Positions 368 through 35,239 of a DNA stretch of 64,000 nt are shown piece after piece. The stretch's first letter is position 1, and every line of letters starts with the position of its first letter. The notes under the pieces were generated by a model. That model was given only the letters and a program-made list of their open reading frames with translations, did not search any database and was not told where the DNA came from. A program made the translations under genes and the position numbers. The stretch lies in IMG/VR virus record IMGVR_UViG_3300032053_000002, positions 108,752 to 172,751 of that record. One strand, written 5' to 3'. This stretch comes from a virus.

Positions 368-396
368 AATATAACCAATTTTTTATAGAAAGTCAA
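368..396 (-). promoter_or_regulatory. sigma70-like promoter, minus strand: TTGACT-N17-TATATT
   Basis: Reverse complement reads TTGACT ttctataaaaaattggt TATATT ahead of ATG at 332. Confidence 0.6.
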
Positions 397-399
397 CCG

Positions 400-585
400 C
401 TACTTTAACAGAAAATTCGCCAGCCTAATTATAAAAATAATTACGAATGCCCAGAATCCTATTCCGAAAGCAGTTCGGTCAAACACCGTCGATTTACCTC
501 GGGAATCAAAGATGATATACAACACCATTAGTCCACCGAATAAAAACAACAAACCAACACCGATATAAATTAATAAGTTTAACAT
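400..585 (-). CDS. small hydrophobic (membrane) protein, 61 aa
   Basis: ORF track; strongly hydrophobic two-helix sequence. Confidence 0.4.
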   Translation of the reverse strand: MLNLLIYIGVGLLFLFGGLMVLYIIFDSRGKSTVFDRTAFGIGFWAFVIIFIIRLANFLLK

Positions 586-596
586 TCCATTTCCTT

Positions 597-896
597 TTAA
601 CTTTTTATGTATGTTTTAGCAACATGCGCGATATCGCGAATTCGTTTAGTATGACCAGAAGTTTCCAATTTTTCAAGACAAACCACAATCTTTTCATAGT
701 CTAATTGCGGATAATAATATTTCATTTTAATCAGATTGACAATAGAAGATTCCACAACTCCGTCGTTATTGTGTTGTAATCCATTTAAATAATTAGCGAG
801 ACCCCGCTCAATTTTAATAGCCGAATCATTTACTTGCGACAATACTTGCGAAAACATTACGCTAATCAATATCACTACTAAAAAAAGTTTTTTCAT
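597..896 (-). CDS. secreted/signal-peptide protein, 99 aa
   Basis: N-terminal MKKLFLVVILISVMFSQVLS signal-like segment; AGGAG-like RBS upstream. Confidence 0.5.
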   Translation of the reverse strand: MKKLFLVVILISVMFSQVLSQVNDSAIKIERGLANYLNGLQHNNDGVVESSIVNLIKMKYYYPQLDYEKIVVCLEKLETSGHTKRIRDIAHVAKTYIKS

Positions 897-984
897 TTTC
901 TCTCTCCTTTTGTTTACATACTATTAAACGAAAAGAAAGAGTAAATGTTGTCACATCCAAGTAAACAATTGTAAAAAATTGTCA

Positions 985-1074
985 TGGCGGAGAGCATAGG
1001 ATTTGAACCTACGCTGCGTTACCGCAGGCCTCGCCTTTCCAGGGCGGCACAATACCTGATTCTGTCAACTCTCC
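985..1074 (-). tRNA. tRNA-Ser (anticodon GGA), type II with long variable arm, CCA encoded
   Basis: Reverse complement GGAGAGT..ACA/TGT D-stem..anticodon loop CTGGAAA..variable hairpin CTGCG/CGCAG..T-arm GTAGG TTCAAAT CCTAT..acceptor GCTCTCC-G-CCA. Confidence 0.8.
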
Positions 1075-1082
1075 ATCTTTCT

Positions 1083-1364
1083 TTACTGATCCAACTTTAA
1101 AAAATTATAAAATTTTTTTAACTCTCGCATAGTCATCACAACCCTTTTTACTCCATATACCACAGAATAAACGGCATCGAGTTCTGGAGTATAAACAAAA
1201 CTCTCGGATTCTTTTCCGGTATCTAATAAATGTTTATCTTTAATCCACACCATTTTTCCGTTAAACGGATATTTTTCAATAAATGTCCAACCATCTTTTC
1301 GTAATCGTCTCGGTGTAATTTTGAGCATCCATAAGTCTCCTTTGTATCGCGTTACGAATTTCAT
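1083..1364 (-). CDS. hypothetical protein, 93 aa
   Basis: ORF between two tRNA genes. Confidence 0.5.
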   Translation of the reverse strand: MKFVTRYKGDLWMLKITPRRLRKDGWTFIEKYPFNGKMVWIKDKHLLDTGKESESFVYTPELDAVYSVVYGVKRVVMTMRELKKFYNFLKLDQ

Positions 1365-1379
1365 TTTTTAAGTTTTTCG

Positions 1380-1466
1380 CGGAGAGCATAGGATTTGAAC
1401 CTACACGACTTTTCAGTCGACCTCGCATTTCGAGTGCGGTACAATACCGGATTCTGTCAACTCTCC
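1380..1466 (-). tRNA. tRNA-Ser (anticodon CGA), type II
   Basis: Reverse complement GGAGAGTTGACAG...anticodon stem CGCA/TGCG loop CTCGAAA...T-arm GTAGG TTCAAAT CCTAT...acceptor GCTCTCC. Confidence 0.8.
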
Positions 1467-1472
1467 ATAATA

Positions 1473-1649
1473 TTAATATTTCCTTTTAGATTTTCTGAAA
1501 GTCTCCAATACGTTCGGATCGGTTGTTGGTGATTTCTTTTCCGCCCACTTTTTCTCTTTATTTTCCGTCCACTTTGTTAATTGTTTATTCACAAAATATA
1601 AAATAAATACGGCGACTAAAACAATCAATCCAATAAATAAAACGTTCAT
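1473..1649 (-). CDS. small membrane protein (~58 aa; start trimmed to internal Met so it does not overlap tRNA)
   Basis: Track ORF 1473..1709 overlaps tRNA-Ser(TGA); internal ATG at 1649 gives MNVLFIGLIVLVAVFILYF... single TM helix plus Lys-rich tail. Confidence 0.4.
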   Translation of the reverse strand: MNVLFIGLIVLVAVFILYFVNKQLTKWTENKEKKWAEKKSPTTDPNVLETFRKSKRKY

Positions 1650-1676
1650 ATGTATTTCCTTTCTATTGGCTTTTCG

Positions 1677-1762
1677 CGGAAGATGAAGGATTTGAACCCT
1701 CGCGTCCAAAGGACGACCTCAGCTTTCAAGGCTGGTGCGATGCCGGACTCCGCCAATCTTCC
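1677..1762 (-). tRNA. tRNA-Ser (anticodon TGA), type II
   Basis: Reverse complement GGAAGAT..anticodon loop CTTGAAA (stem CAGC/GCTG)..T-arm GAGGG TTCAAAT CCTTC..acceptor ATCTTCC perfectly pairs GGAAGAT. Confidence 0.8.
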
Positions 1763-1766
1763 AATA

Positions 1767-2003
1767 CTATTTTTCTTTATCTTCTTTTCTTTTATTAAGG
1801 AATATTTTATTTATCAACGTCCATGCACTTAATCCAATAGAAATTAAAACTCCTAATTCCTTAACTACATCTAATAAATAATAAATGTTTAATTTTTGAA
1901 GTATGTATGTTAATAAAAACGCTCCCGCTGCCGCAGAAACTAAAAATTCTGTTACCGCGTGCCACATCCGTGACTTCCAAAACTTACCTGTTATGTTTTT
2001 CAT
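1767..2003 (-). CDS. small membrane protein, 78 aa
   Basis: ORF track; two hydrophobic segments. Confidence 0.45.
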   Translation of the reverse strand: MKNITGKFWKSRMWHAVTEFLVSAAAGAFLLTYILQKLNIYYLLDVVKELGVLISIGLSAWTLINKIFLNKRKEDKEK

Positions 2004-2039
2004 AACATAAACTCCAATTAGCGGAGAGTATAGGATTTG

Positions 2040-2125
2040 AACCTATGTGCCCAAAGGGCAACCTCGGTTTAGCAAACCGGTACAATACCTGACTCTGCCA
2101 ACTCTCCAGAACGATCTTTATTTCA
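2040..2125 (-). tRNA. tRNA-Ser (anticodon GCT), type II
   Basis: Reverse complement GGAGAGTTGGCAG...anticodon loop TTGCTAA...T-arm ATAGG TTCAAAT CCTAT...acceptor ACTCTCC. Confidence 0.8.
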
Positions 2126-2168
2126 TTTTTATCGCCATGGTGTTTCTCCAAATTTTTATATATAGATA

Positions 2169-2197
2169 AATATACGAAAATAAAATATACAAGTCAA
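2169..2197 (-). promoter_or_regulatory. sigma70-like promoter TTGACT-N17-TATATT, directed toward tRNA-Ser(GCT)
   Basis: Reverse complement TTGACT tgtatattttattttcg TATATT. Confidence 0.6.
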
Positions 2198-2213
2198 GTT
2201 ATTTGTTGAGTAT

Positions 2214-2684
2214 TTATAACTCAAAACTTTCTACTTCTTCTGGCGACAAATCATACACACTAGAAAATAGTGTTTTAAGATTGCTGTGCCAGTCGACTCC
2301 GTATTTCTTAACTATTATATAAAATTCGTTAATATCATGTCTTCTAATCCGATATTCCCATTCGCCAGATTTATCATTTGTTATCGCTAAAACATGCAAT
2401 AACTCGTGCCATAACAGTATCATTCGCTGTTCTTCTGTTATTTTATCCCAAAACTCCCCAGATAATTCTATAACATAATCGCATTCACCAAACACTTTTA
2501 ATAAGTTACTGGCTCTGGTGCATCTTCCGGCCGTTGTTTTGCTTATTGTGGGATAAACTAATAGATACTTTATTCTTGCGTTACCTATTTGAATTAGTTT
2601 ATCTTTGATAACTTCTTCCGCCAAATTTTCCACATCTGGCGACTTAACATACTCTTTTTTCTTAATTTTTGTTGTGTTGGACAT
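2214..2684 (-). CDS. SprT-like zinc metallopeptidase (HExxH: WHELLH)
   Basis: 156 aa; HELLH zinc-binding motif with downstream acidic residues; size and layout typical of SprT/DUF45 family. Confidence 0.5.
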   Translation of the reverse strand: MSNTTKIKKKEYVKSPDVENLAEEVIKDKLIQIGNARIKYLLVYPTISKTTAGRCTRASNLLKVFGECDYVIELSGEFWDKITEEQRMILLWHELLHVLAITNDKSGEWEYRIRRHDINEFYIIVKKYGVDWHSNLKTLFSSVYDLSPEEVESFEL

Positions 2685-2741
2685 GACATACCTCCGTTAA
2701 TATATTACTATAAGTTAAACGAAATTTTTCAAAAAAAGTTC

Positions 2742-4244
2742 CTATTTCGAATCCAAAACATCTCGTACCCGTTTAAGTATAGTCAGTGGAGTAACCGGTT
2801 TTTCAATAAAATTAATATTTTCGTGTAGTATTCCATAATGTACTATTGTATTATCAGTATATCCTGACATATATAATGTTTTAATTTTTGGGTATTTTTT
2901 GATTAGATTTTCTACTAATTCTACTCCATTCATTTTTGGCATAACGACATCAGTTAATACAATGTCGATTGGAACATTAAGTGTTTCCACTTTTTCTAAT
3001 GCGATCACACCATTTGAAGCCATAATTACGGTATATCCAGAATTTTCTAAACGGTCTTTTATAAGATTTCTAACTTCTAGTTCATCTTCTACTAATAATA
3101 CTGTTTCGGTTCCTCTTATATCGTTTTCATTTATTTTATCAACCAAAAAGCGTTTTACGGCAATATCATCAGTTGAAGGAAAATAAATATAAAATGTTGC
3201 TCCGTGCCCAGGTTCACTTTCTGCCCAAATATGTCCATTACTTTGTTTAACAATGCCGTATACCACAGGCAAGCCAAGACCGGTTCCTCTTCCCAATGGT
3301 TTAGTCGTAAAAAATGGTTCAAATAATCGATCCTTTACTTCTTTAGTCATTCCTACGCCAGTATCTGAAATAGAAATCAAAACAAATGAACCTCTTTTAT
3401 CAAATGGTTCGATGGATTCAACGTTTTCAGTTTTTATTACCAATTTTCCCCCATCTGGCATAGCATCAATCGCGTTTATACAAATATTTATTAAAACTGA
3501 TTGAAATTGAACCGTATCTATTTTAATATTTTTAATATCTGGGGATAGATTTAAAGAAAAATCAATGTCTTCTTTTATAAACTGACTTAAAAAATCTTTT
3601 TGTTCGGATAAAAATTGATTTGGGTCAACAGTTTCCATTTTCATCATTTGTTTTTTACTAAATGCTAAAAGTCGTTTTACAAATTTTTCTGCCCGTTCAC
3701 TCGCACGAAAAATTTTTCCAACTTTAACTTGTTCATTTGAATCTGGAACTAATTTATTCATTAGCTCTTCGCTATATCCTTTTATAACGGTTAAAATATT
3801 ATTAAAATCATGTGCGATACCGCCCGCTAATAAACCAACGGCTTCTAATTTAGAAGTATTTTTTAATTGGTCTTCTAAAACAGTTTTTTCATTTTCAAGG
3901 CACGTTATATCTCTAACATAAACAATCCCAAGCGTTTCATTGTCATGATTAAAAAATTTTGCATATACTTCGCATGAAAATGAACTACCATCTTTTTTTC
4001 TATTAATAGTTCTAGTAAAGAATTTTCCTGTTTTTTTACCGATTTCCATTAATTTAGGCAGAGTCATTTTATAATATTCTTCCGAAGTTAAATCATGTAC
4101 ATTTAATATAGATTTAAATTCTTCGCGTGTATATCCGTATAATTCAATGGCAGTTTGATTACAATCTAAAATAGTACCATCTAATTTTTCTAAAAAAATT
4201 GCGTCCGGTGACGTATCAAGTATTAAATCAAAAAATCTTTTCAT
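2742..4244 (-). CDS. hybrid sensor histidine kinase with C-terminal receiver domain (PAS - HisKA - HATPase_c - REC)
   Basis: 500 aa; PAS-like N-term; H-box HDFNNILTVIKGY; G-box ISDTGVGM...GTGLGL; receiver with LLVEDE...D(TDVVMPKMNG) phospho-acceptor Asp. Confidence 0.8.
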   Translation of the reverse strand: MKRFFDLILDTSPDAIFLEKLDGTILDCNQTAIELYGYTREEFKSILNVHDLTSEEYYKMTLPKLMEIGKKTGKFFTRTINRKKDGSSFSCEVYAKFFNHDNETLGIVYVRDITCLENEKTVLEDQLKNTSKLEAVGLLAGGIAHDFNNILTVIKGYSEELMNKLVPDSNEQVKVGKIFRASERAEKFVKRLLAFSKKQMMKMETVDPNQFLSEQKDFLSQFIKEDIDFSLNLSPDIKNIKIDTVQFQSVLINICINAIDAMPDGGKLVIKTENVESIEPFDKRGSFVLISISDTGVGMTKEVKDRLFEPFFTTKPLGRGTGLGLPVVYGIVKQSNGHIWAESEPGHGATFYIYFPSTDDIAVKRFLVDKINENDIRGTETVLLVEDELEVRNLIKDRLENSGYTVIMASNGVIALEKVETLNVPIDIVLTDVVMPKMNGVELVENLIKKYPKIKTLYMSGYTDNTIVHYGILHENINFIEKPVTPLTILKRVRDVLDSK

Positions 4245-4266
4245 TGCCGATCTCCTTCAATAAAAG

Positions 4267-4346
4267 AACCCCGAGCGGGATTTGAACCCGCCTTTTCAGC
4301 TCCATCTACGAATAGAAGTTTAGGAAACTCCCTCGGCTATCGGGGC
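4267..4346 (-). tRNA. tRNA-like element (type-II-like, degenerate D-arm; anticodon unresolved, possibly CCU)
   Basis: Reverse complement has acceptor GCCCCGA/TCGGGGT, U8 A9, perfect T-arm GCGGG TTCAAAT CCCGC and a long variable region, but no canonical D-stem; a hairpin GGAGT/ACTTC with loop TTCCTAA lies too close to the 5' end. Confidence 0.4.
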
Positions 4347-4350
4347 AAAA

Positions 4351-4617: not shown

Positions 4618-4644
4618 AACTCTTTCCTTTATTTAATATAAATA

Positions 4645-9643: not shown

Positions 9644-9705
9644 AATATAATCATTCCCGAACTACCAGTCAAGAATTATTTTTAAATATTGTGATTTTTT
9701 TCACA
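9644..9705 (-). promoter_or_regulatory. sigma70-like promoter TTGACT-N17-TATATT with upstream perfect TGTGA-N6-TCACA palindrome (9690-9705)
   Basis: Reverse complement TTGACT ggtagttcgggaatgat TATATT; palindrome TGTGATTTTTTTCACA. Confidence 0.6.
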
Positions 9706-13826: not shown

Positions 13827-14031
13827 CTGTTATTTTTTGTTGTAAATTACTATAATAGTAACGGCCGTTATTTCAAATATAATACTTAAAGTCAACTGTT
13901 ATTTGTTATAAACTATTATAATGATGACGGTTACCTGTTATACTGCTAATAGGTTATCGTTAGGGTATTGTATTCTCTATTTATTATTAGTGTATTATTA
14001 TTTTAAATTTTAATTTAGGGGAGAAAATATT

Positions 14032-14727
14032 ATGATTAATAAACCGATTATTTATAATGGTTCGCTTATATATGCAGATTTATCAAATCTGGATAATATT
14101 ATTGCAGCTCCAAATTTTACCGGTAGCAGTTGCAGTACCGGCAGCGTCAATGCTATACGAGTAACTCTCAGTCACATGGAACGATTTACATTTCCCACGG
14201 CTGTTATGGATATTCCGGTATCGTGGTCGTTGCTCGAACAAACTATTACGTTAGGCACATTTCTATCGCAAAGTTTGTGGCATAATAACATTATACAGGC
14301 TGCATATCCAGGGCATCAGATGCATATGAGACTTCAATTTAAAAGTTCTACTGACATGAGCGATTATTCGCCAACAATGTCTTTTTGCGTCGAACCTTAT
14401 CCTGTAATGACGTTAACTGATCCCACCCCCGGAGAAGAAATCCCTTCAATTGCTAGTTGGGGTCAGGTAGGATTTAGTTGGGGAGCCTTTTCGGCCAGAT
14501 TTGGTCATTGCAGCGGAAGTATATGGTTTCGTTATCAGATTCAGGTGGATAATAATAGTGATTTTTCTTCTCCACTGTTTAATGAGTACTGGACTACTCC
14601 GTATACTAATGTTAAATCTATAGCACTTGGAACTTATTATTGGAGAGTTCGGGCTTTAAAAGAATACGCCGCGGTTTGGTATTGCCAACCGTGGTCTTCA
14701 GTACGAAGTTTTACGGTTATTCCTTAA
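14032..14727 (+). CDS. hypothetical protein, 231 aa, plus strand, with fibronectin-III-like C-terminal segment (GTYYWRVRA)
   Basis: GGGGAG RBS 8 nt upstream; composition noticeably less AT-rich than neighbours; followed by a strong terminator. Confidence 0.6.
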   Translation: MINKPIIYNGSLIYADLSNLDNIIAAPNFTGSSCSTGSVNAIRVTLSHMERFTFPTAVMDIPVSWSLLEQTITLGTFLSQSLWHNNIIQAAYPGHQMHMRLQFKSSTDMSDYSPTMSFCVEPYPVMTLTDPTPGEEIPSIASWGQVGFSWGAFSARFGHCSGSIWFRYQIQVDNNSDFSSPLFNEYWTTPYTNVKSIALGTYYWRVRALKEYAAVWYCQPWSSVRSFTVIP

Positions 14728-14776: not shown

Positions 14777-14884
14777 CTTGGACAGATTTTCCGAAAAATT
14801 TTTAACTCCTTGACTTGAATTGTCGCCAGATGTGCCTCGTAAAATTCGTTTTTTATTAATAACTGCAAAATATGTTTATTGATA

Positions 14885-15075
14885 ACTGCGAAATACTTCA
14901 GGCGAAGTTATCTCTGCAAAATACTTCAGGCGTCCGTTCCGATGACAGAAGAATGATGTCAGCAAAATACTTCAAATGATGTCAGCAAAATACTTCAGGC
15001 GTCCGTTCCGATGACAGAAGAATGATGTCAGCAAAATACTTCAGGCGTCCGTTCCGATGACAGAAGAATGTGCGA
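14885..15075. repeat. iteron-like array: 17-mer GCAAAATACTTCAGGCG x5 within ~46-bp units x3
   Basis: Direct inspection; ORF-free region. Confidence 0.75.
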
Positions 15076-15380
15076 TACCCCTTGACCCGCTCGAGCGCAT
15101 TGCGCATCTCGGACTTCCTGACTTTCTACGCCTGAGACACACCCACCAAGACCACAAGACAGGCCATGTGAAACCCTTCACAAACTGCCATACCCGCACG
15201 ACTACCCCCGCACTAAAAGGCACTCGCCGCTCGTCTACTGGCACGTCCAGAAAACGTTCTCTGATGCGGGTTGACATCGTTATACCGCTCCAGCTCCGCT
15301 CCAGCTCCGCTCCAAATAGATATGGAGATTTTTTGCCCTGGAAAATAACTTACAGTTTGCAAAGAGTTATATAGTGGGAA

Positions 15381-16421: not shown

Positions 16422-18674
16422 TTAATTCCTTTTAATCGTCGAGAACAAAGAATTCAACTCTTTAGCAAGCGGAACCAGTTGATCAACCCTGATGAAGCGA
16501 CTATCCTTACCGTACATTTCGCGGAAAGTTACAGCGGAACTAGACGTGGTATCTACGCGATCACTTACGAAAAAGGACATAACCCGAATACCGTTTGCTC
16601 TCATTTTATCTACGGCTTCTTTTGTCAGAGTTTCAATATCCTTAATCCCATTATAGCTGTTAGGTTCACCGTCGCTGATGTTGATGAAGTACGATACTTT
16701 TCCGACACTACTATTAAGTATTTCTTTCATCGTCGCCTCGAAACACAATCCTTCGGGAGTACCACCAGTGGAACACATCATAGAGAAGTATTTACGAAAC
16801 TTACCGAAACTGTCTTTGCGACTATCATACGCAAGCAGAACCGTCGGCGCTTGCATACCATTAGTAACGTAGTAATCCCACCGAAGAGAAATCATAACTT
16901 TTAAGTTATTCACCTGAGTAGCAGCGTAGGCTAAAGCCGACACCATAGTCATCGTCCTATTCCACTTATCACCCCCCATAGACGATGACGCGTCAATACT
17001 AATATGTAGCATCGCTTCACCGAAAGTGTCCTTAGTAACCTGTGAAAAGACAGATTCCAAATCATATCCCAGTCCGTGAAGTAACCGTTTTTCCAGATGG
17101 CCGGTTTGTTTACGAATAAGTTTAGTAACCTTTGTCTCGTTACGAATCTGTAAGCGATTCGCCAACATCTTGCCTAACCGAATTCCGAGATTGACATACG
17201 TTTCAGACGGCTTACGATTGGAGTTATGAAATAAACTATCGCGCATCAAATGCATCGACTCGTCGTTCAGTTCGCGAATGACAACTACTTGTACACCTTC
17301 TTTACTTTCACCATGACTGTCAGATTCAGTACCGGTAGCGCCATCACCAACTTTAGTTTTTTTCCCACCAACGTTCTCAACCGTCGTACCGGACGCATCC
17401 ATTGCGTTAATTATTTCGTGCTCGTCTTTAGTGATAGCACCTTTCTTTACTTTTCCATTTACCAGTTCTTTTATTTCTTCAATAGCCTTTTTCAACTGTT
17501 TTTTCTGTTCTTTTGTCAGTTCATCTCCAGATTGTGGCGTTCCGTCTCCGACATTAACCATATCACCGTCTTGCAACTTATCTATTGGGTTATCGTGTTT
17601 CGAATCACCGTCATCTTTTTTATCACCGTCTTTGCTGTCGCCAGAGTCTTTGTCTTTTTTATCACTACCGTCAGAGTCTTTATCTTTTTTATCACTGTCG
17701 CCAGAACCGCCACCACTATCACCAGATTCTTCTCCACCATCACCGCTATCGCCAGATTCTTTTTCATCACCACTATCTTTTGTCTGCGACTCATCACCGG
17801 TTTCCGTAGGTTTATTTAACGGATGGTCAACCGGAAGCGGGTCAATGTTTTCTAACACAACCGTAAAAATCTTTTCGGCGACTATACGAGAATCGGACGT
17901 ACTTTCCAGGCGGTCGATATTGTCAATATCAAATATGTTACTGATTTTATCTAAACCAGGAAGTGCATTCAGGTCAATGTTACTTTTATCAGACGCCAGA
18001 CCGTAGAAGCGAAAATGATAACTTTCAAGATTTCTCTCGCGATAGTAACTTGATTTCAATCCAAGAGCAACTATTTTCGCGTTCCAATATCTATTATACA
18101 ACGATGTATAATATGGTCTATAACCGATAACTTTGTCCATCATAATACGGTCAATGCGACGATCTTCAATAAAGTTCCAGTAGTCAAAGAACAACTTTTC
18201 CAACTCTTCTTTATTGGTTATGTTTTTTGTAGCGGCTAAAGCCGTGATTGATGGGGTTACATTTATAGTTCCAGTTTTAAGAAACTCACTGTACAATATG
18301 TGACTGGACTCGTGGAGTGCTAACCCGACAACCGTATCAAAATCTTTGTTAGTAACGTTAGCACTAATAAAGACATTTTTACTGTCGGTCATACTATGAT
18401 CTTGAACGTTAAACAATACTTTGATTTTTTTGTCGCGAGTCGCGATGTGGACAAACCTGGCGACCGCTCTGCGAATAGACGACATTTCGATAAGCGATTT
18501 CTTATCTTTTTCTTCTGGGATAGCACGTAGCCAGTAACGAGAATACAGATTGGCGGTAGAGTAATCTTCATCTTCCCGAAAACCAAATCGCGTCTTGAAG
18601 AAATCTTTCGCCATTTCCTTATCGTATGCTTCGTCGGCTTTATTTTTGCCACCGAATAAGTTTTTTATACTCAA
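16422..18674 (-). CDS. CobT-like von Willebrand factor A (vWA) domain protein with long acidic low-complexity linker; TTG start
   Basis: 750 aa; C-terminal vWA/MIDAS-type domain (HISIDASSSMGG...), central D/S/G/K/E-rich repeat (DSGDS..., KKDKDSDGSDKKDKDSGDSKDGDKKDDGDSKHD); AAGGAA RBS before TTG; adjacent to a MoxR/CobS-like ATPase as in many large phages. Confidence 0.7.
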   Translation of the reverse strand: MSIKNLFGGKNKADEAYDKEMAKDFFKTRFGFREDEDYSTANLYSRYWLRAIPEEKDKKSLIEMSSIRRAVARFVHIATRDKKIKVLFNVQDHSMTDSKNVFISANVTNKDFDTVVGLALHESSHILYSEFLKTGTINVTPSITALAATKNITNKEELEKLFFDYWNFIEDRRIDRIMMDKVIGYRPYYTSLYNRYWNAKIVALGLKSSYYRERNLESYHFRFYGLASDKSNIDLNALPGLDKISNIFDIDNIDRLESTSDSRIVAEKIFTVVLENIDPLPVDHPLNKPTETGDESQTKDSGDEKESGDSGDGGEESGDSGGGSGDSDKKDKDSDGSDKKDKDSGDSKDGDKKDDGDSKHDNPIDKLQDGDMVNVGDGTPQSGDELTKEQKKQLKKAIEEIKELVNGKVKKGAITKDEHEIINAMDASGTTVENVGGKKTKVGDGATGTESDSHGESKEGVQVVVIRELNDESMHLMRDSLFHNSNRKPSETYVNLGIRLGKMLANRLQIRNETKVTKLIRKQTGHLEKRLLHGLGYDLESVFSQVTKDTFGEAMLHISIDASSSMGGDKWNRTMTMVSALAYAATQVNNLKVMISLRWDYYVTNGMQAPTVLLAYDSRKDSFGKFRKYFSMMCSTGGTPEGLCFEATMKEILNSSVGKVSYFINISDGEPNSYNGIKDIETLTKEAVDKMRANGIRVMSFFVSDRVDTTSSSAVTFREMYGKDSRFIRVDQLVPLAKELNSLFSTIKRN

Positions 18675-18704
18675 TCTATCTTTCCTTCTTTAATTGTATA
18701 CCTA

Positions 18705-18776
18705 AATATACCACCCCCCGGCGTATCAGTCAACTGTTATTTTAACTATTTTTTTAACCATATGAATTATTTCACA
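18705..18776 (-). promoter_or_regulatory. sigma70-like promoter TTGACT-N17-TATATT with UP-like AT block and upstream near-palindrome TATGAATTATTTCACA
   Basis: Reverse complement TTGACT gatacgccggggggtgg TATATT. Confidence 0.6.
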
Positions 18777-18852
18777 TGACCGTTCCTGGAAAAAAAGAAA
18801 TACCCCCTGCACATAATGTATAGGGGGTATTTCGCCTTCTTAGGGAAGGATT

Positions 18853-20160
18853 TTACATTAAGTCATCTTGATGAAACAGGTCGCCAGATCCAGCCACGAC
18901 CGGTTCAACTTCTTCTTTTTCCTTTTTCTCTTTTTTCGGCTCTTTGACTACATCTTTTTCGAACAGCGGCTCGGCGTCGAGGTTACTATATTGCTGAATG
19001 AACTGCAACAGATGTGTTCTTTCGGAATCGGCACCACCTTCACCGGAAAACATATTCACCACACTGGCTTCCATCACTTCACTGAAAGTAAACCCATCGT
19101 TCAACATGCTAACCTGCGCGACAGTGGAGCGGATAGAAATCATGGTAGTCAGGGTTGGCGCTTCACTGGTAGCCTCTTTACGAGTATACCCGGCAACAGC
19201 AACAATACCCTTAATAAGTTTCTGGTTAATTTCAGGATATAAAAGTTTTAACAACTTGAATTCTTCGGCTTCAGTAGGAATATCCATTTCAATCATGACC
19301 GGAAAACGGTCTTTCGTAGCACGATCAATGATACGAGTAGCGGTGTATTCACCACCGACGTTAGCGGTCGTAAAGAACGTTACTCCAGGAGCGACATTGA
19401 TTACAGGTGTTTTCGGGTCTTCATCCAACCGCACATAACGCTGATCCGGATCGAGAATCGTCATAAGGATATTTTCAGCATCAGGATTGGCACGAGTTAT
19501 TTCGTCCAAGAGAATTACAGCACCCGGTGTCGTAATGGCTTTGATAAACTCAGACTTGACGAAGTAAGTACCGGTTTCCTTATTGAAGTGTGTGTTACCG
19601 ATTAAAGTAGCACGAGCGTCCTGTGTAGCCCCAAGATTAAACTTGAAGAACGGGCGACCCAGAACTTTACCGATAGTGCGACCGGTAAGTGTTTTACCGA
19701 ATCCACTATAACCCGTAAAGATGATATTCTGGCCACGAAGAGCAGAGTGCACCGCATACTTCCATTTCAGTTCAGCCAATATGAGGGTCTTCGGTTTCAG
19801 TGAGATTGCGTTCTTGATAGCAGTACGTACATCTTCATCAGATGGGGTTACGTATCCTGTATATTCAGATGGAGTAGTCGCCTCGACTGTGGGGTTGGCG
19901 ACAACCGAAGTAGGCATAAGTGTAGAACCGTTACTATATTCATAGTCAACGGGAACTTCATCGGCTTTCAAACGACGCCAGAAAACATTACCGGCCTTCG
20001 ATACCACTTTTCCTAAGTAGATACCGTGGTCAGCCGCATGGCGACGAGCGCCGTAAGGTATTGGTTCGCTATACATCTTCTCCGTCTTGATTTCAATCGG
20101 GTTCAGATGAGAACCATCGCGAACGACTTTAACGATTACTAAAAATTTTGGTGATTTCAT
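18853..20160 (-). CDS. CobS-like / MoxR-family AAA+ ATPase
   Basis: 435 aa; Walker A GYSGFGKT, Walker B ILLDEITRANPDAENILMTILD, sensor motifs; partner of the vWA protein. Confidence 0.75.
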   Translation of the reverse strand: MKSPKFLVIVKVVRDGSHLNPIEIKTEKMYSEPIPYGARRHAADHGIYLGKVVSKAGNVFWRRLKADEVPVDYEYSNGSTLMPTSVVANPTVEATTPSEYTGYVTPSDEDVRTAIKNAISLKPKTLILAELKWKYAVHSALRGQNIIFTGYSGFGKTLTGRTIGKVLGRPFFKFNLGATQDARATLIGNTHFNKETGTYFVKSEFIKAITTPGAVILLDEITRANPDAENILMTILDPDQRYVRLDEDPKTPVINVAPGVTFFTTANVGGEYTATRIIDRATKDRFPVMIEMDIPTEAEEFKLLKLLYPEINQKLIKGIVAVAGYTRKEATSEAPTLTTMISIRSTVAQVSMLNDGFTFSEVMEASVVNMFSGEGGADSERTHLLQFIQQYSNLDAEPLFEKDVVKEPKKEKKEKEEVEPVVAGSGDLFHQDDLM

Positions 20161-21652: not shown

Positions 21653-21718
21653 ATTATATTTTAACTATTTTTATTCTTTGTGAAAAATTTCACTTTATTT
21701 GTGTCCTATTTTTTAATT

Positions 21719-22754: not shown

Positions 22755-22883
22755 TGTGAAATTATTCACAAGATCGTCGCCGTGACTGGCGACTTGCCAT
22801 CCCGAGCCTTGTGAAGTTTTTCACAAAGTAGCGGCTCAGCTTGACGCGAGCAAGCGGCCGGCCGCGTTGTGAAATTTTTCACA
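22755..22883. promoter_or_regulatory. cluster of three perfect CRP-like palindromes TGTGA-N6-TCACA (22755-22770, 22810-22825, 22868-22883) with GC-rich hairpins between them
   Basis: TGTGAAATTATTCACA, TGTGAAGTTTTTCACA, TGTGAAATTTTTCACA; also GTCGCC-gtgactg-GGCGAC hairpin and 12-bp palindrome GCGGCCGGCCGC. Confidence 0.6.
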
Positions 22884-22899
22884 AGCGACTGTAATAAAA

Positions 22900-23255
22900 A
22901 AGTCCTACGTCCGTGACTTCCATGTAGCCTCGGGTTGCGATCCCGTTCGTCATGGCCTCGTCACGTAATTCGTAGGACTTTTCTCACCTAAGTCGTTTCC
23001 GACTGTCCACATTACCTGCTAGCCGGCGGGATAGTTGGATGGGCGACGACTCCCATCATCTCATACCGACACATACGGCCGGTGCGCCTTTCTTCCTTAG
23101 ACCACAACTATTTTCGGTGATTCTCGCGATTTCTGCCGAATTCGCGATACTTTTATTCATTTCTCAAAGAACAAAAGAGTGCCCCGTAGGACACCCCCGA
23201 ACGTTCTCCCGGGGAGTGTCCTCCACGCGGGTATACGTTCCATATTTGATATACT
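22900..23255 (-). ncRNA. candidate ~350-nt structured non-coding RNA (GC-rich, ORF-free, own promoter and terminator-like 3' stem)
   Basis: Consensus promoter at 23256-23284 fires into this segment; no credible ORF on either strand; 3' end forms long stem GTCCTACG...CGTAGGAC followed by a U-run (plus-strand aaaaaaGTCCTACG at ~22905); GC content far above surrounding DNA. Confidence 0.4.
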
Positions 23256-23753: not shown

Positions 23754-23829
23754 TGGGGTGCACGGTGAGATTCGAACTCACGCTCCGCGGGTCACAGCCG
23801 CGTAATGCTACCGCTACATCACGCGCACC
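23754..23829 (-). tRNA. tRNA-His (anticodon GTG) with G-1:C73 and encoded CCA
   Basis: Reverse complement G-GTGCGCG..anticodon stem CGCGG/CCGCG loop CTGTGAC..T-arm GTGAG TTCGAAT CTCAC..CGTGCAC-C-CCA. Confidence 0.85.
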
Positions 23830-25563: not shown

Positions 25564-25664
25564 GAACTATTTTCGCTATAGCGGCATTCCGGACGGCAAT
25601 GCGGTCGTAACTAGAGCCCTTCGTGAACTTTTTCACATACGGTCTGTACGTTTTCTGTAAGTGG

Positions 25665-25745
25665 TTTTTCAATCCGCTCGCTCCTCTCGGTTGCAATCCG
25701 CTCGCTCCTCTCGGTTGTCAATTCGCTCGCTCCTCTCGGTTGTAG
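25665..25745. repeat. ~23-bp direct repeat x3 (ccgctcgctcctctcggttgcaat)
   Basis: Direct inspection, GC-rich ORF-free island. Confidence 0.8.
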
Positions 25746-25854
25746 GGGGCAACTCGGTAGACGTGTCAGGCGAGTTCAGAACCGTGCATGCAAATAGGCA
25801 GCCTGAAGTGTGTTCGTCGTGTGGGGGGGTTCTTGGCGGGAGTTTGTGGTTTGT

Positions 25855-25912
25855 GCGGGAGTTCTTGCGAGAGTTTGCGCGGGAGTTCTTGCGGGAGTTT
25901 GCGCGAGGAATC
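25855..25912. repeat. ~22-bp direct repeat x2.5 (gcgggagttcttgcgagagttt)
   Basis: Direct inspection. Confidence 0.75.
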
Positions 25913-26084
25913 GTGGAGAAGTGGGGGCATGGGGGTGGCGGTGCTTCCGACGAGTAGCAATTGCGCATCGGCAATACCTGCGACCCACTATTATAATATT
26001 ATCCGAATATCAAAAAGGCGTGGATTATTTATTTATAATAGGGAAGTGATTATCAATTCCAGCAAGTTGTATCAAATAGGCGAG

Positions 26085-26165
26085 TGATATGCAGCGATAT
26101 GCAGTGATATGCAGCGATATGCAGTGATATGCAGTGATATGCAGTGATATGCAGCGATATGCGCT
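26085..26165. repeat. 10-bp tandem repeat gatatgcagY x8
   Basis: Direct inspection. Confidence 0.85.
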
Positions 26166-26178
26166 GTAATATATATGG

Positions 26179-30877: not shown

Positions 30878-30905
30878 CGGGCGGGATTTGTGTCCGCATC
30901 TCTTA
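30878..30905 (-). terminator. rho-independent terminator for the 30999..31337 gene (GCGGA-tttgtg-TCCGC, U-run on minus strand)
   Basis: Plus strand aaaaaCGGGCGGGAtttgtgTCCGCatc; initially resembled a tRNA fragment but lacks tRNA architecture. Confidence 0.5.
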
Positions 30906-30998
30906 CCCCAGAGCCGGCTCCGGATAAAGTGTTTTTTCAGCCTTCTATCTATTATGAGCCTACTTATTAAACTACCGTTCTATTATAAAGTTTCTCAC

Positions 30999-31337: not shown

Positions 31338-31354
31338 TTTATTTACGTTTTTTA

Positions 31355-31451
31355 GGAAGGACGGTGGGATTCGAACCCACCTATTACTTGCTCATACGGA
31401 CTTAAACCGTCGCACTTTTGTCGCATTCCCGACATTCCTGTCACGTCCTTC
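31355..31451 (-). tRNA. atypical ~97-nt tRNA-like gene, anticodon loop UUUAAGU (anticodon UAA, Leu-type), Sec-like geometry
   Basis: Reverse complement: acceptor GAAGGAC/GTCCTTC, U9, D-arm TGACA-GGAA-TGTCG (5 bp, 4-nt loop), 19-nt insert, anticodon stem ACGG/CCGT, 14-nt variable region, 6-bp T-stem GGTGGG TTCGAAT CCCACC. Confidence 0.45.
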
Positions 31452-31462
31452 ACCACCAAAAA

Positions 31463-32533
31463 TTACTTTACGGGTTGAATATTTACGAACGGAACCGCGC
31501 CACCAGTAACTTGTGGCAAAATACCATTCCAAGTTTGAACCGCTTGCCATTGAATTAATGCTTGTGTTAAAGACGCATTGACGATTCGATTAGCTTCAGC
31601 TTGTCCTTTCGCCACGTTAATAAGTGATTGAGCCGTACCTTCAGAAGTTTTAATCTTCTGTTGTGCTTCCGCATCAGCTTGACGAATCTTATTTTCGGCT
31701 TCGATAGCACGCTGTGTTGCTTCAATAACGGCGTTAATACTGGCCTTGACCGTTGGGTCAACGCGCATTTCGCCGACAAACCCAATCATATCAAACTTAA
31801 ATCCCTTCGGCTCAAGATCCTTCACAGCTATTTCTTTAACTCTATCAAGTAGTTCTTGTTTTCCCGCTCCAAAAATAGCCGTAACTTTCATACTTGAAGC
31901 AATACGATTAAAATAATCCCTAATTTTTGAACGAACATAAACACGGGCAATGTGTTCGGGGTCTTGACGATATTCAACGAATAAAGATGGTACTTTTTCA
32001 GAAATATATCCAAACGATACGGCTATATCTGTATTGATAACAGCACCTTCGATAGAATTAAAAGTAATGGCTTCGTCGGTTGGCGACCCCTCGTTAAGGT
32101 CTTGTGTCCATACCCAGTTTTGTAAAAATGTCGGGAATTTGTAAACATCTTCGGTAAATGGGTTTAGCCAAACACGACCGGTCATCAAAGGAAAATCTTC
32201 CACACCTTTTTGGGTGCCGTATTGGTTTACTTTGATTCCCACATAACCGGGTTCTACTTTTACGCAACCATTTAAAGTAAGAAAACAAAACGCGATAATC
32301 ATTCCCAGCATGAAAATCTTTTTGACTTCTTTCACTAAAAAGATGCCCCAAAATACTGCGGCGAAAATCATAAGAACCAATATCACCACACCGACTAAAA
32401 CGGCAATGGAGCTCGGTTCACTTATCATTTCGCCAACACTTTCGAATACCCACATAAATGCGAAGATACCGAAAATAATCAGCGCAATGGCCTTGAGAGT
32501 CGCAGAGACTCTCGGGTTCATGTTAAATAACAT
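31463..32533 (-). CDS. SPFH/band-7 (prohibitin/HflK-like) membrane protein
   Basis: 356 aa; N-terminal TM helices; C-terminal QADAEAQQKIKTSEGTAQSLINVAKGQAEANRI coiled segment typical of SPFH proteins. Confidence 0.65.
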   Translation of the reverse strand: MLFNMNPRVSATLKAIALIIFGIFAFMWVFESVGEMISEPSSIAVLVGVVILVLMIFAAVFWGIFLVKEVKKIFMLGMIIAFCFLTLNGCVKVEPGYVGIKVNQYGTQKGVEDFPLMTGRVWLNPFTEDVYKFPTFLQNWVWTQDLNEGSPTDEAITFNSIEGAVINTDIAVSFGYISEKVPSLFVEYRQDPEHIARVYVRSKIRDYFNRIASSMKVTAIFGAGKQELLDRVKEIAVKDLEPKGFKFDMIGFVGEMRVDPTVKASINAVIEATQRAIEAENKIRQADAEAQQKIKTSEGTAQSLINVAKGQAEANRIVNASLTQALIQWQAVQTWNGILPQVTGGAVPFVNIQPVK

Positions 32534-32546
32534 GGTTTACCTCCTG

Positions 32547-32804
32547 TTAGTTATTGTTTATAGTTATTGTTCTTTTGCCTTCTTCAAGGTTTTTTATTCG
32601 TTTATGAAGTTCAAGTATACTGTCGTTTAATTTACCATTTTGTGTTATCGTGCCATTTACGAGATCCAAAATATCGTTGCTTTGTTTAAGAATCCATTTA
32701 TCATTTTTGTAAATGCGGATTCCCAGAACAACCATATATATAGTCAATCCGATAATTATACCATATAATAAACTTAGCATAAAATTACTTTCTTTTTCTT
32801 GCAA
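32547..32804 (-). CDS. small membrane protein, 85 aa
   Basis: ORF track; N-terminal TM helix. Confidence 0.45.
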   Translation of the reverse strand: MQEKESNFMLSLLYGIIIGLTIYMVVLGIRIYKNDKWILKQSNDILDLVNGTITQNGKLNDSILELHKRIKNLEEGKRTITINNN

Positions 32805-32814
32805 AACATATCTA

Positions 32815-33066
32815 TTAATTCATCGTATTAAATTTTTTAATAAGTAATTCTTTACGTTCTCCATCAATTTCTTCTTCATGTTTCAATATCAAATCCATCC
32901 TCGTGTATTTTTTCACTATTTCTTCTTCGGTTAAGGAATTCGGGTATTCTTCCGCAAGAACCAATAAAGTAATTTTTTCGCTCTTGGTTAAAGAATACCA
33001 ATTTTTATCATTTACGAAATTTTCGATAACTAATTTATACCCACCGTGCATTTTTAATCTCCCCAT
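32815..33066 (-). CDS. hypothetical protein, 83 aa
   Basis: ORF track. Confidence 0.45.
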   Translation of the reverse strand: MGRLKMHGGYKLVIENFVNDKNWYSLTKSEKITLLVLAEEYPNSLTEEEIVKKYTRMDLILKHEEEIDGERKELLIKKFNTMN

Positions 33067-33068
33067 TA

Positions 33069-33344
33069 TCAGATTGAAAAACTTGCAATCACGTCTTTCA
33101 GTCTTGCTTCAAACATATCATTTTTTATTCTTTTTTTCTTATCCGGCATAATCCAGTTAAGATGTTTCCCGGTAGTGTTGCCCCAAATATTCTCGGAGCA
33201 AATCAGCCCATGATGAGAAGTGCTAAATGCGACAGGTGTACTGTACGAGAAATAGACCGACAGATTGCCGATAGAAACTATTAACGTATGAGCACCATAG
33301 TTACTGGTTGAGTATTTTCCGTAATTTTCAATTTTTGGTAACAT
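33069..33344 (-). CDS. hypothetical protein, 91 aa
   Basis: ORF track. Confidence 0.45.
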   Translation of the reverse strand: MLPKIENYGKYSTSNYGAHTLIVSIGNLSVYFSYSTPVAFSTSHHGLICSENIWGNTTGKHLNWIMPDKKKRIKNDMFEARLKDVIASFSI

Positions 33345-33374
33345 AAAATTATAACCTTTTACTTTTTATGATGT

Positions 33375-33602
33375 TCAATTTAGATTGTTATTATTACTTG
33401 GTTGCATGGTTTTAATAAAAATATTATATTTCTCTTCGCCTAAAATTAAATATAAAACCGAATGAATTGCTTTATTTTTTTCATCTTCACTGTATTTTGT
33501 GGCGTCAACTCCGGTCGATTCGAAAATTTCGTAAACCACTTTATGAAATCGCTCATATTGGTCAGTCGTTTTTAATGATTTTTCTATTTTTGATAAATCC
33601 AA
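33375..33602 (-). CDS. hypothetical protein, 75 aa
   Basis: ORF track; consensus promoter (spacer 16) at 33636-33663. Confidence 0.45.
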   Translation of the reverse strand: MDLSKIEKSLKTTDQYERFHKVVYEIFESTGVDATKYSEDEKNKAIHSVLYLILGEEKYNIFIKTMQPSNNNNLN

Positions 33603-33659
33603 TTCACTTTCCTTTTTTATTATAATATACTATTAAATATACGAAATATAATTAAAAAG

Positions 33660-33971
33660 TCAAGGTTTATTTTTGTTTCTCATAATATAATTTTTCGCCC
33701 ATATGAACGCATCGGCGCTTGAAGCATATCCGACACATTCGAATAAAATTTGTTCCCATGAGTGTTTGCGAGTGTCAATCACTTGCCATACGTTGAAACG
33801 TGCTTTATAATAGATGATAAGGTTTTCAAACTGATAACGCTCGTCGTTTAACGCAACTATCAGACGCACTTTTTCCGACTCTACTCGTTTTTCGTCGATG
33901 TGATTTAATTTTTCACGGCGGCGTTCTTTTAAACCGTACTCTATTTTCTTCTTATTATTATTACTTACCAT
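33660..33971 (-). CDS. hypothetical protein, 103 aa
   Basis: ORF track. Confidence 0.45.
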   Translation of the reverse strand: MVSNNNKKKIEYGLKERRREKLNHIDEKRVESEKVRLIVALNDERYQFENLIIYYKARFNVWQVIDTRKHSWEQILFECVGYASSADAFIWAKNYIMRNKNKP

Positions 33972-34534
33972 TTTTATTCTTGCCTCCTACCCAAACTTTG
34001 AAAACATACGCCGTAAGTGCGATAATAATTCCCGCAAATCCCCAATTTGAATCTAGTGTTAGTACCATAAATAACGCGCATATCAACGAAATAAAAATTA
34101 AGATTCCGCTGACTATAAGTTTTAATGGCTTCATAACTTTTTTCTTTTATTTTATTTTCATATTGGATATTTTTATTTTAATTTTTAACTTTATGTATAG
34201 TATTTTCATATAAAATCCCCCGGCCTTCTTTTTGTTATAGGTGACAGTATCCATCATCGATTAACGATTTAGCAGTACGACCATAAAATCCCTGTAATTG
34301 CCATACCACTCCGGAATCAATCATCTTCTGAAATTCGGTGATGACTTCATCTTCAGTCGCCTCACCATTTTCAAAACGTAAAATAAAATCTAAATTCGGC
34401 ATTATTTTGCTCCTTTATTTTTTCTTGTTTTCATTCCACCACATCACAAATTGTTTCCATACCCACTCTAAAAAATGATAGGCGACAATACAAATTATTA
34501 TATCTATTAGGTATGACAGTACTATTCGCATATT

Positions 34535-34897
34535 TTATACGTGCTCTCCATTATTCAATTTCCGGTATAACTCTTTTACCGTTATCGGCCTGAAATACTT
34601 ATCTCGTTCAAGTCCGCAACCCGGAAAAATTTCTACGGACTCCAGTTCTTTTAGCGATATTGAACCCATTTCAGGCCCCACATCGTCAAACAGAATTGCC
34701 ACTCCCCATAAATAATCGGAGTCTTTCGGATCCTGGTTCATTAGATACCAGGTCGCCCGACCGTAGGGATTAAAGATTTTGGCGACAACTTCCTGTTCGA
34801 ATGACGAACCTTTTGGAAATTGTTTTTTTAATTTAGTCTCTAACTCTTTGGTGAGTAACTTCATTTGCCTATTCCTTTTTGGTTTTTGTTTTAACAA
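34535..34897 (-). CDS. DUF2958-like protein (FNPYGRATWYL motif), 120 aa
   Basis: Motif ...AKIFNPYGRATWYLMNQDP...; recollection of DUF2958 signature, not database-verified. Confidence 0.4.
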   Translation of the reverse strand: MLKQKPKRNRQMKLLTKELETKLKKQFPKGSSFEQEVVAKIFNPYGRATWYLMNQDPKDSDYLWGVAILFDDVGPEMGSISLKELESVEIFPGCGLERDKYFRPITVKELYRKLNNGEHV

Positions 34898-35039
34898 CCG
34901 GTTTTTTAACTTCCGCCAACCACGTTTTAGTCGCGTCAGTATTTTTACGAACCATAACTTCTAAGCAATGCATTTTGTATTCTCCTTGTTATACTCTAAT
35001 ATACGAAATTTAAACCTATTTGTCAACTGAATAAATAAA

Positions 35040-35205
35040 TAGTGCCTGGAGGAGGAGTTGAACCCCCGACCATCCATTCGGGCAAATCTACTAAGGATGG
35101 CTTCTCAGTAGGCGATTCTACTTCAGTCATTTGCCAACCGAAATATATTCTTTTCCTACCTACCCGCTCCGGCGGTTCCGGGCATAATAAATTGTTTTTT
35201 ATCAT
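35040..35205 (-). ncRNA. candidate small RNA / tRNA-like element driven by a consensus promoter
   Basis: Promoter 35211-35239 points into this ORF-poor segment; transcript would end ...GGTCGGGGG TTCAACT CCTCC TCCAGGCA (T-arm-like plus acceptor-like 3' end); 5' segment GCCCGGA could pair with TCCAGGC with one mismatch; internal 7-bp hairpin GCCATCC/GGATGGT; does not fold as a canonical tRNA. Confidence 0.3.
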
Positions 35206-35210
35206 ACCAG

Positions 35211-35239
35211 AATATACAACTATTTAAAGTAACAGTCAA
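35211..35239 (-). promoter_or_regulatory. sigma70-like promoter TTGACT-N17-TATATT
   Basis: AGTCAA 35234-35239, AATATA 35211-35216 on plus strand. Confidence 0.55.

Follow-up and report, generated by a model that had tools for sequence, protein, structure and literature searches.

Sigma70-type promoters with probable operator palindromes in the small-gene half of a 64-kb stretch of phage DNA

How does a large phage start the many short transcription units of its small-gene region, and could it tie some of them to the physiological state of its host? This question is raised by a stretch of 64,000 nucleotides (positions 108,752 to 172,751 of IMG/VR virus record IMGVR_UViG_3300032053_000002), which is called the window throughout and has its own numbering starting at 1. 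In the first half of the window a promoter motif, TTGACT-N17-TATATT, recurs many times, and a palindrome with the core TGTGA-N6-TCACA lies upstream of some of the copies. A first-pass annotation had described a recurring three-part promoter composed of this palindrome, an A/T-rich block and the core promoter, with input from a CRP-like factor. Our analysis supports the view that the core promoters belong to one family of the host-sigma70 type, oriented with the genes and located in the half of the window that is rich in small open reading frames (ORFs). We have little doubt that this family is real, and it is ordinary in kind. The three-part design is not uniform, as the palindrome is found at only 6 of the 15 promoters. 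Where it is present, it is probably an operator for a dimeric regulator, and both Rex and CRP/FNR proteins are candidates for binding it.

Exact matches to TTGACT-N16-18-TATATT occur 13 times in the window, all on the minus strand, where shuffled sequences give an expectation of 0.08. Their -10 coordinates (368, 2169, 6585, 9644, 13798, 18705, 20194, 22700, 23256, 24049, 25535, 33636, and 35211) are those that had been reported, and we use the -10 coordinate to name each promoter. A two-block position weight matrix (PWM), built from the promoter copies themselves and scanned over both strands, found 15 sites with scores from 19.6 to 57.9, compared to a maximum of 8.7 in shuffled sequence. All 15 are on the minus (gene) strand between 368 and 35239, with no site on the plus strand and none between 36 and 64 kb, in agreement with the earlier statement that the second half has none. 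The two sites beyond the exact matches are P21624, which had been counted among 14 essentially identical cores and has the variant -10 TAATAT, and P34998, which has the -35 TTGACA and had been overlooked. The spacer is 16 bp in one copy only, P33636, and the 18-bp spacer that had also been reported was found in none. Together, the 15 copies of TTGAC[TA]-N16/17-TA[TA][AT]AT have hexamers of the sigma70/SigA type, and with the gene-strand orientation and the small-ORF location this supports the earlier assignment to host sigma70. Scanning the window for the generic sigma70 and terminator consensus showed no enrichment (94 hits versus 83 expected), so that only the specific motif is informative. 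The conserved cassette is wider than the hexamers (aaaaATAGTTAAAATAaCAG-TTGACT-GnTA...tgGTATATT-tAgGTATA), and its 17-bp spacer often ends in the TG of an extended -10.

The minus strand carries nearly all ORFs of the window. Every promoter copy is located at or just past the end of one ORF, ahead of the next feature. The first half contains 30 gaps of at least 50 nt between ORFs, and the 15 promoter copies, compared to four such gaps and no copy in the tightly packed second half. Since a contig of the same phage (L012, 100% identical in the overlap), which reaches 10 kb past the left end of the window, has three more copies, the whole set amounts to at least 18.

We infer transcription start sites and an early timing for these units, and +1 was assumed to be the seventh base after the -10 for all distances to the palindromes. 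In four copies an ORF starts with an ATG 5 to 8 nt past the -10. These are P368 (368 to 396, minus strand, like all copies), with the ATG at 5 nt of a 161-aa gene that runs off the left window end; P6585 (6585 to 6613), with the ATG of a 93-aa ORF at 5 nt; P21624 (21624 to 21652; TTGACT-N17-TAATAT), with an in-frame ATG at 6 nt; and P22700 (22700 to 22728), with the ATG of a 121-aa ORF at 8 nt. The simplest reading of this spacing is that the four promoters produce leaderless mRNAs, which would support real start sites and place +1 to within one or two bases. Four tRNA-Ser genes, one tRNA-His gene, and two non-coding stretches lie behind other copies. P2169 (2169 to 2197) would drive the tRNA-Ser genes together with small ORFs, P24049 (24049 to 24077) a small ORF and the tRNA-His gene, P23256 (23256 to 23284) a 357-nt non-coding stretch at 22893 to 23249 with predicted structure, and P35211 (35211 to 35239) about 160 nt ending in a tRNA-like T-arm. 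P18705 (18705 to 18733) lies ahead of a gene for a 750-aa protein with HExxH and VWA motifs, with a UP-like block at 18736 to 18757 and a terminator hairpin at 18797 to 18833, and P20194 (20194 to 20222) lies ahead of a gene for a MoxR-type AAA ATPase. P9644 (9644 to 9672) and P25535 (25535 to 25563) were found by both the exact motif and the PWM, P13798 (13798 to 13826) has a decayed partial duplicate at 13874 to 13899, P33636 (33636 to 33663) has the lowest PWM score of the 15, and P34998 (34998 to 35026) reads TTGACA-N17-TATATT.

The consensus of the UP element across -59 to -38 is nnAAAWWTWTTTTnnAAAAnnn. Scored against this E. coli consensus, the corresponding block of the 15 copies matches on average 8.5 of the 15 specified positions, compared to 5.9 +/- 2.1 in the background. 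Seven of the 15 copies have at least 10 matches, a level reached by 4.4% of background windows, and four copies score 7 or less. By this comparison, the upstream block appears UP-like in about half of the copies and looser in the others. An A/T-rich block above the -35 is thus present as previously described, but its ATAGTTAAAATAACAG form is found in only six or seven copies, with looser versions elsewhere. The sequence of the block is lineage specific, with ATAGTTAAAATAACAG here and ATCAGAAAACAG in relatives.

The relatives on hand were either strains at 98 to 100% identity (L001 to L006, L012, and L013) or phages with at most 41% protein identity, with none in between. Near-identical strains are present in several sediment-type metagenomes, and the 750-aa protein is found on a 168,695-bp contig. 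The strain contigs L002 to L006 are collinear with the window at 98 to 99% identity, and to the right a single 3.7-kb contig is the only one to carry the last window gene. An INPHARED megablast search with the region from 18 to 26 kb gave no close relative, and the promoter cassette sequence was not found in IMG/VR. The 750-aa protein belongs to a family of more than 600 proteins. Three loci with 37 to 41% identity in this protein (L008, L009, and L010, the last from a 288-kb contig) carry gaaaACAG-TTGAC[AT]-N17-TATATT-tAGGTA on their gene strand. This is the same promoter type and indicates that the promoter is a trait of the clade. Microcystis phage Mel-JY01 and IMG/VR locus L007, which are more distant, have neither the promoter nor the palindrome.

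The palindrome is strongly overrepresented in the window. With at most one mismatch, TGTGA-N6-TCACA is found 10 times where 1.28 are expected, and the longer form TGTGAA-N4-TTCACA nine times where 0.24 are expected; four copies of the latter are perfect, compared to 0.02 expected. The symmetrised consensus of this box is tTGTGAAatatTTCACAa (tTGTGAA-WWWW-TTCACAa), in which 15 to 16 of 16 half-sites keep GTGAA/TTCAC unchanged, while the A/T-rich centre varies. Eight of the nine boxes lie upstream of six promoters. The box TGTGAAAAAAATCACA at 9690 to 9705 is centred at about -60.5 of P9644. Boxes with one mismatch are centred at -70.5 of P18705 (18761 to 18776), at -70.5 of P20194 (20250 to 20265, overlapping the stop codon of the upstream ORF), at -69.5 of P21624 (21679 to 21694), and at -101.5 of P25535 (25622 to 25637). 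P22700 has three perfect boxes, one at 22755 to 22770 (centre -69.5), the full 18-mer TTGTGAAAAACTTCACAA at 22810 to 22825 (centre -124.5), and the full 18-mer TTGTGAAAAATTTCACAA at 22868 to 22883 (centre -182.5), immediately behind the hairpin that terminates the non-coding unit upstream. The ninth box, the perfect palindrome TGTGAAGGGTTTCACA at 15167 to 15182, is an orphan with no adjoining promoter and lies beside iteron-like repeats. Five of these positions (9690, 18761, 20250, 22755, and 25622) had been given correctly at first pass; a site placed at about 21692 is really the one at 21679 to 21694, and the perfect copies at 22810, 22868, and 15167 had been missed. The location near -70 proposed for the palindrome agrees with the inferred centres at four promoters, with the remaining boxes at the other distances given above.

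Box-bearing and box-free cassettes are homologous only from about -55 downstream. The box is thus a module of its own, and four promoters have it in the same register. Eight promoters have 38 nt or more of non-coding DNA above them, and six of these carry the box; the other seven abut an upstream ORF, and none of them carries it (Fisher p = 0.006). Two promoters with long upstream spacers, P35211 and P13798, have no TGTGAA box, and each has another inverted repeat at about -71 to -73: for P35211 this is TGGTGTAC-N4-GTATACCA at 35266 to 35285 (about -71), and for P13798 it is the palindrome TAACGGCCGTTA at 13859 to 13870. Within the boxed promoter P22700, strains differ at five positions between the three boxes and at none within them, which is not significant (p about 0.28). 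Folded as RNA, the box would give a hairpin of only -5.5 to -6.7 kcal/mol, which is weak; it lacks a U-run, and since A-rich rather than U-rich sequence follows it, we rejected a role as an intrinsic terminator. These features of the sequence make it probable that the palindromes are operators for a dimeric regulator.

The same box is also found in phages that are unrelated to this one. When public metagenomes were scanned for the palindrome followed by a gap and TTGAC-N17-19-TATATT, most matches were unrelated hairpins, but one was a low-GC element of 4.5 kb (L032). This element contains GTGAAATATTTCAC(AA) 14 times, always with the same ATAT centre and in groups of two or three, ahead of seven promoters that read TTGACA-N17-TATATT and have an A-rich block each; this is the same three-part design. 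When IMG/VR was scanned for two boxes within 6 to 36 bp, 38 contigs were found, compared to four for a control palindrome of the same composition. Several of the box-bearing contigs hold 6 to 22 boxes, and in one family of contigs of roughly 90 to 120 kb a terminator is followed by two or three TTGTGAAWWWWTTCACAA boxes and then by TTGACT-N17-TATAAT. No protein was found to be common to the window and any of the 39 other box-bearing loci, which are fragmentary. As the same box is nevertheless present in unrelated phages, this favours a common host factor. Our literature searches returned no report of Rex-type boxes on phage DNA.

We propose that the window is the small-gene, probably early, arm of a large uncultivated phage, in which the transcription units would start from one reused cassette read by the host RNA polymerase with its primary sigma factor. 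The cassette would consist, in this order, of the UP-like block at -59 to -38, TTGACT, a 17-bp spacer, TATATT, and a start in (G)TAT(A/G) 6 to 8 nt downstream, and would drive small ORFs (four of them leaderless), tRNAs, and non-coding RNAs. The six cassettes with free upstream space would bear one to three 18-bp operators just above the UP-like block, to which a putative dimeric global regulator of the host would bind. At -60 to -100 this regulator may modulate the contacts of the C-terminal domain of the polymerase alpha subunit (alpha-CTD) with the UP-like block, and about a third of the early units would in this way be tied to the physiological state of the host. Any binding of a protein to the boxes is inferred from the DNA sequence, and the regulator may either activate or dampen the units. 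Overall, an ordinary early-promoter family combined with a probable operator for a host regulator is the reading towards which we lean.

Several observations weigh against this reading. An activator seems unnecessary, because the core promoters are near consensus and are identical with or without a box. Known Rex boxes overlap or abut the core promoter, which the boxes of the window do not. The four sites near -70 are partly due to duplication of the cassette (P18705 and P20194 are 84% identical over 104 bp), so that the window holds only three independent box distances. Using one value per independent distance, the centre of the proximal box lies 25, 35, or 66 bp above the -35 in the window and 35, 36, 46, 47, 60, or 68 bp above it in L032; together these distances cluster on one helical face (R = 0.77, p about 0.005), which is significant only with L032 included, and among periods of 6 to 16 bp the best is 10.6 to 10.9 bp. 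No helical phasing is seen in the IMG/VR loci by themselves (R = 0.17), the promoter assignments there being crude, and we regard the phasing of the boxes as suggestive only. In 47 kb of the relatives with the same promoter type no such palindrome is present, so that its conservation in related phages was not borne out; these relatives, however, are very remote, and unrelated phages do carry the box. On an unrelated viral contig of 95 kb (L095, positions 1 to 720; 3300045988_163471), about 25 palindromes resembling the Rex box follow each other with a period of 29 bp over 700 bp, which is no simple promoter operator and looks more like a decoy, a centromere, or an origin.

Which protein would bind the boxes depends on whether more is made of their sequence or of their position, and we give Rex (by sequence) and CRP/FNR (by geometry) roughly equal weight. 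The symmetrised consensus is the same as the published Rex operator of Staphylococcus aureus, TTGTGAAW4TTCACAA (PMC2883068). The two full 18-mers at 22810 and 22868 match it perfectly, one other box has one mismatch, and the others have two or three. In the IMG/VR loci the outer flank is T in 78% of cases, and TTGTGAA-N4-TTCACAA is matched perfectly by 76 of 169 boxes. A Rex-family redox sensor of the host could bind the boxes at a low NADH/NAD+ ratio and dampen the units, for example by keeping the alpha-CTD off the UP-like block or through tandem dimers that bind cooperatively. Full early firing would then occur only in metabolically active, NADH-rich cells, and a repressor fits promoters that are already maximal better than an activator does. 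However, the Rex boxes that have been characterised are found inside the core promoter or only a few bp from it (PMC2883068). In the window the box centres are 25 to 147 bp above the -35, with none in or abutting the core. Moreover, ribosome-binding motifs precede only about 50% of the ORFs of the window (compared to 12% in the background), which is atypical of Firmicutes. We consider binding by Rex possible, with more doubt than confidence.

The first-pass annotation had read the palindrome as a site for a regulator of the CRP/FNR family, and the core of such sites, TGTGA-N6-TCACA, is indeed contained in the box consensus, to which the Rex operator corresponds at least as well. A CRP-type protein of the host, with cAMP or a similar ligand, may bind here and activate transcription from a class I position by contacting the alpha-CTD, which would itself sit on the UP-like block, and the A/T block between the box and the -35 would suit such contact. 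Class I positions of CRP are -61.5, -71.5, -82.5, -92.5, and -103.5, and the box centres at -60.5, -69.5/-70.5, and -101.5 fall within about 1 bp of three of them (on the assumed +1, and for three independent distances). In addition, the sites at -69.5 and -124.5 of P22700 resemble the CRP sites of E. coli acs P2 at -69.5 and -122.5, and the period near 10.7 bp in the window and L032 would be in line with this kind of activation. On the other hand, the extended consensus of E. coli CRP is AAA-TGTGA...TCACA-TTT, a 22-mer with flanks A...T, and CRP does not need an A following TGTGA. The boxes do not carry these flanks: at the nine sites, 10 of 18 half-sites have an outer T, giving T...A, and TGTGA is invariably followed by A. 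Six of the eight promoter-linked boxes have an A on the flank nearer the promoter. Core promoters this close to consensus need no activator, and the same box is frequent in phage contigs that have strong AGGAGG ribosome sites together with TGn extended -10 elements. These last features suggest Firmicutes hosts, in which cAMP-CRP would not be expected. Activation by a CRP-type protein is, like repression by Rex, a tentative explanation at best.

A regulator encoded by the phage itself had also been put forward. No Crp/Fnr, Rex, or helix-turn-helix domain was found among the 84 proteins of the window, nor among the Pfam marks of the flank of about 10 kb (L012), so that a phage-borne Crp/Fnr gene finds no support there. 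A DNA-binding protein of unrecognised fold could still serve, for example, in autoregulation or in the early shut-off of some units: most proteins of the window have no Pfam or PHROG match, and the 14 boxes of L032 with their identical ATAT centre resemble a dedicated operator. Yet the lack of a protein common to the window and the 39 box-bearing loci, weak evidence as these are fragments, and above all the single 18-bp consensus across unrelated phages, argue for a common host factor. We think a phage-encoded binder improbable and a host regulator the more likely of the two.

The boxes may also have nothing to do with the adjacent promoters and may instead be titrating decoys, stem-loops for recombination of the PeSL (promoter-early stem-loop) type, or replication or partition sites placed in free space. 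They are found wherever there is non-coding room, the orphan box lies beside iteron-like repeats, the L095 array has its 29-bp period, the IMG/VR set is without phasing, and the PeSL cassettes of T4-type phages join a stem-loop to an early promoter (PMC4122927). The four promoters with the box in the same register to the -35 are difficult to explain in this way. In addition, the arms are conserved in sequence and not in pairing alone, the RNA hairpin is weak, and the strains that are 98 to 99% identical show no gene replacement bounded by the cassettes. A role outside promoter control is improbable as well. A decoy or titration role is kept in play because the core promoters need no help and other phages have long arrays. 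It would even be conceivable, if unlikely, that many unrelated large phages, this one among them, independently acquired arrays of host Rex-type boxes next to their strongest early promoters, either to gate them by NADH/NAD+ from an unusual upstream position or as decoys that titrate the regulator. Fis was rejected as the binder, since its motif is a degenerate, odd-centred 15-mer and the palindrome an even-centred 16- to 18-mer.

The clues to the host are mixed. Labels of metagenome-assembled genome bins in the 750-aa family are scattered over phyla. The relative L010 carries Por_Secre_tail genes, which led us to consider Bacteroidota-type promoters (TTTG/TAnnTTTG), and the promoter motif of the window does not fit these. 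A hybrid PAS-HisKA-HATPase-REC histidine kinase is encoded at 2742 to 4244 (minus strand). Its closest homologues are CckA-like kinases of sediment anaerobes with 40 to 47% identity, labelled Thermodesulfobacteriota, Deltaproteobacteria, or Acidobacteriota, and these point loosely to a Desulfobacterota or Acidobacteriota host. A stand-alone receiver is encoded about 5 kb downstream (L012, 7097 to 7456); no DNA-binding output domain was seen for this pair.

Several features of the window surround the promoters. Behind P2169, tRNA-Ser genes with the anticodons gga, cga, tga, and gct follow each other at 985 to 2107 (minus strand), alternating with ORFs of 55 to 93 aa, and the tRNA-His gene behind P24049 is at 23754 to 23828. 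Rfam, at gathering thresholds, recognised only tRNAs. The stretch at 22893 to 23249 (minus strand) is GC-rich and free of ORFs and runs from P23256 to a long hairpin with a U-run. Its predicted fold has -132 kcal/mol (z-score -4.5), and strain variants show 12 differences in it. Rfam offers no matching family, apart from a weak sub-threshold hit to skipping-rope, and we regard the stretch as a candidate structured non-coding RNA. Three short non-coding units, at 31338 to 31462 and 35045 to 35204 in the window (both on the minus strand) and at about 7770 to 7830 in L012, end in a tRNA-like acceptor stem and T-arm (GGTGGGTTCGAATCCCACC and similar). Two of them are immediately upstream of a promoter copy. 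ARAGORN called no tRNA in these units; the tmRNA model matched them weakly with its 3' end.

Iteron-like direct repeats with units of 23 and 46 bp (GAAGTATTTTGCTGACATCATT) are located at 14852 to 15070. They adjoin the only convincing plus-strand ORF (14032 to 14727, 231 aa, no family match) and mark the start of a 12-kb stretch with 40 to 42% GC, compared to 31 to 35% elsewhere. An origin is one possible reading of this region, the edge of an acquired module another. Above P25535, about 600 nt of non-coding DNA (25564 to 26178) contain three repeat arrays, among them eight copies of AGTGATATGC with a period of 10 bp at 26083 to 26162. The genes for the MoxR-type AAA ATPase and the 750-aa protein form a pair at 16422 to 20160 (minus strand). 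The latter protein has an HExxH motif and a C-terminal VWA/MIDAS motif, is not covered by a Pfam model, and belongs to a family present in phage-like contigs. In the sugar-gene half, one of the few gaps (47752 to 47812) contains TATAAATA, the T4 late-promoter consensus, and a NUMOD3 homing-endonuclease-like ORF is found at 51110 to 51877.

The promoter family is useful for annotating transcription units across this uncultivated clade, since distant relatives have the same motif ahead of their probable early units. If a global regulator of the host, be it Rex or CRP/FNR, binds the boxes, part of the early programme would be coupled to the energy or redox state of the host, and about 40 unrelated phage contigs with boxes may likewise couple to this regulator or titrate it. 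Rex-type gating, or a decoy, would be an undescribed means by which a phage reads or rewires host redox control. In the decoy variant, the regulator would be titrated as the phage replicates and the fermentative metabolism of the host would be derepressed.

The arrangement invites comparison with the early promoters of T4-type phages and the PeSL cassettes (PMC2839356, PMC4122927, PMC2988021). As in those phages, near-identical promoters of the sigma70 type, here probably early, recur many times with A/T-rich sequence upstream, placed between small ORFs of unassigned function and often directly after a terminator hairpin. The order of terminator and then promoter is clear at P18705 and P22700, but the conserved palindrome is not the terminator. 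A T4 RNA ligase 1 in the flank, the NUMOD3 endonuclease, and TATAAATA in one gap are further T4-like touches. Unlike a PeSL, the element here is a conserved, operator-like palindrome of 16 to 18 bp that forms a weak RNA hairpin, can stand in tandem, and accompanies only 6 of 15 promoters. Between the 98 to 99% identical strains (L002 to L006), we saw no indels or replacements bounded by PeSL-type elements.

With the class I and class III CRP promoters of E. coli (lac and acs P2), the window has in common sites upstream of the -35 whose cores, on the assumed +1, lie at about -61, -71, and -102 and may share one helical face, and, as in class III, tandem sites at one promoter (P22700, -69.5/-124.5). 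It differs from them in the flanks and the invariant A of the boxes, and in having cores that are near consensus and not weak. The rrnB P1 promoter combines its core promoter with a UP element and Fis sites at -71, -102, and -143. The cassettes resemble it in their strong core, an A/T-rich, UP-like block from -40 to -60, and putative protein sites at about -71 and -102. The likeness to the Rex operators of Gram-positive bacteria lies in the sequence itself, as the 18-bp consensus including the A/T centre is the same and perfect 18-mers are found both here and elsewhere (PMC2883068). Known Rex boxes repress by occlusion from a position overlapping or abutting the core, whereas the boxes here are at -60 to -180.

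To our knowledge, there are few well-known cases of host-regulator sites in phages, namely the Spo0A boxes of phi29 and Nf and the LexA boxes of temperate phages. In the Bacillus phages phi29 and Nf, the Spo0A boxes are located in early promoters (PMC2731898). Although the regulator, the motif, and the geometry of repression all differ, the window resembles these phages in that sites for a global regulator of the host, putative in our case, lie in early promoter regions of the phage, through which its development would be coupled to the state of the host.

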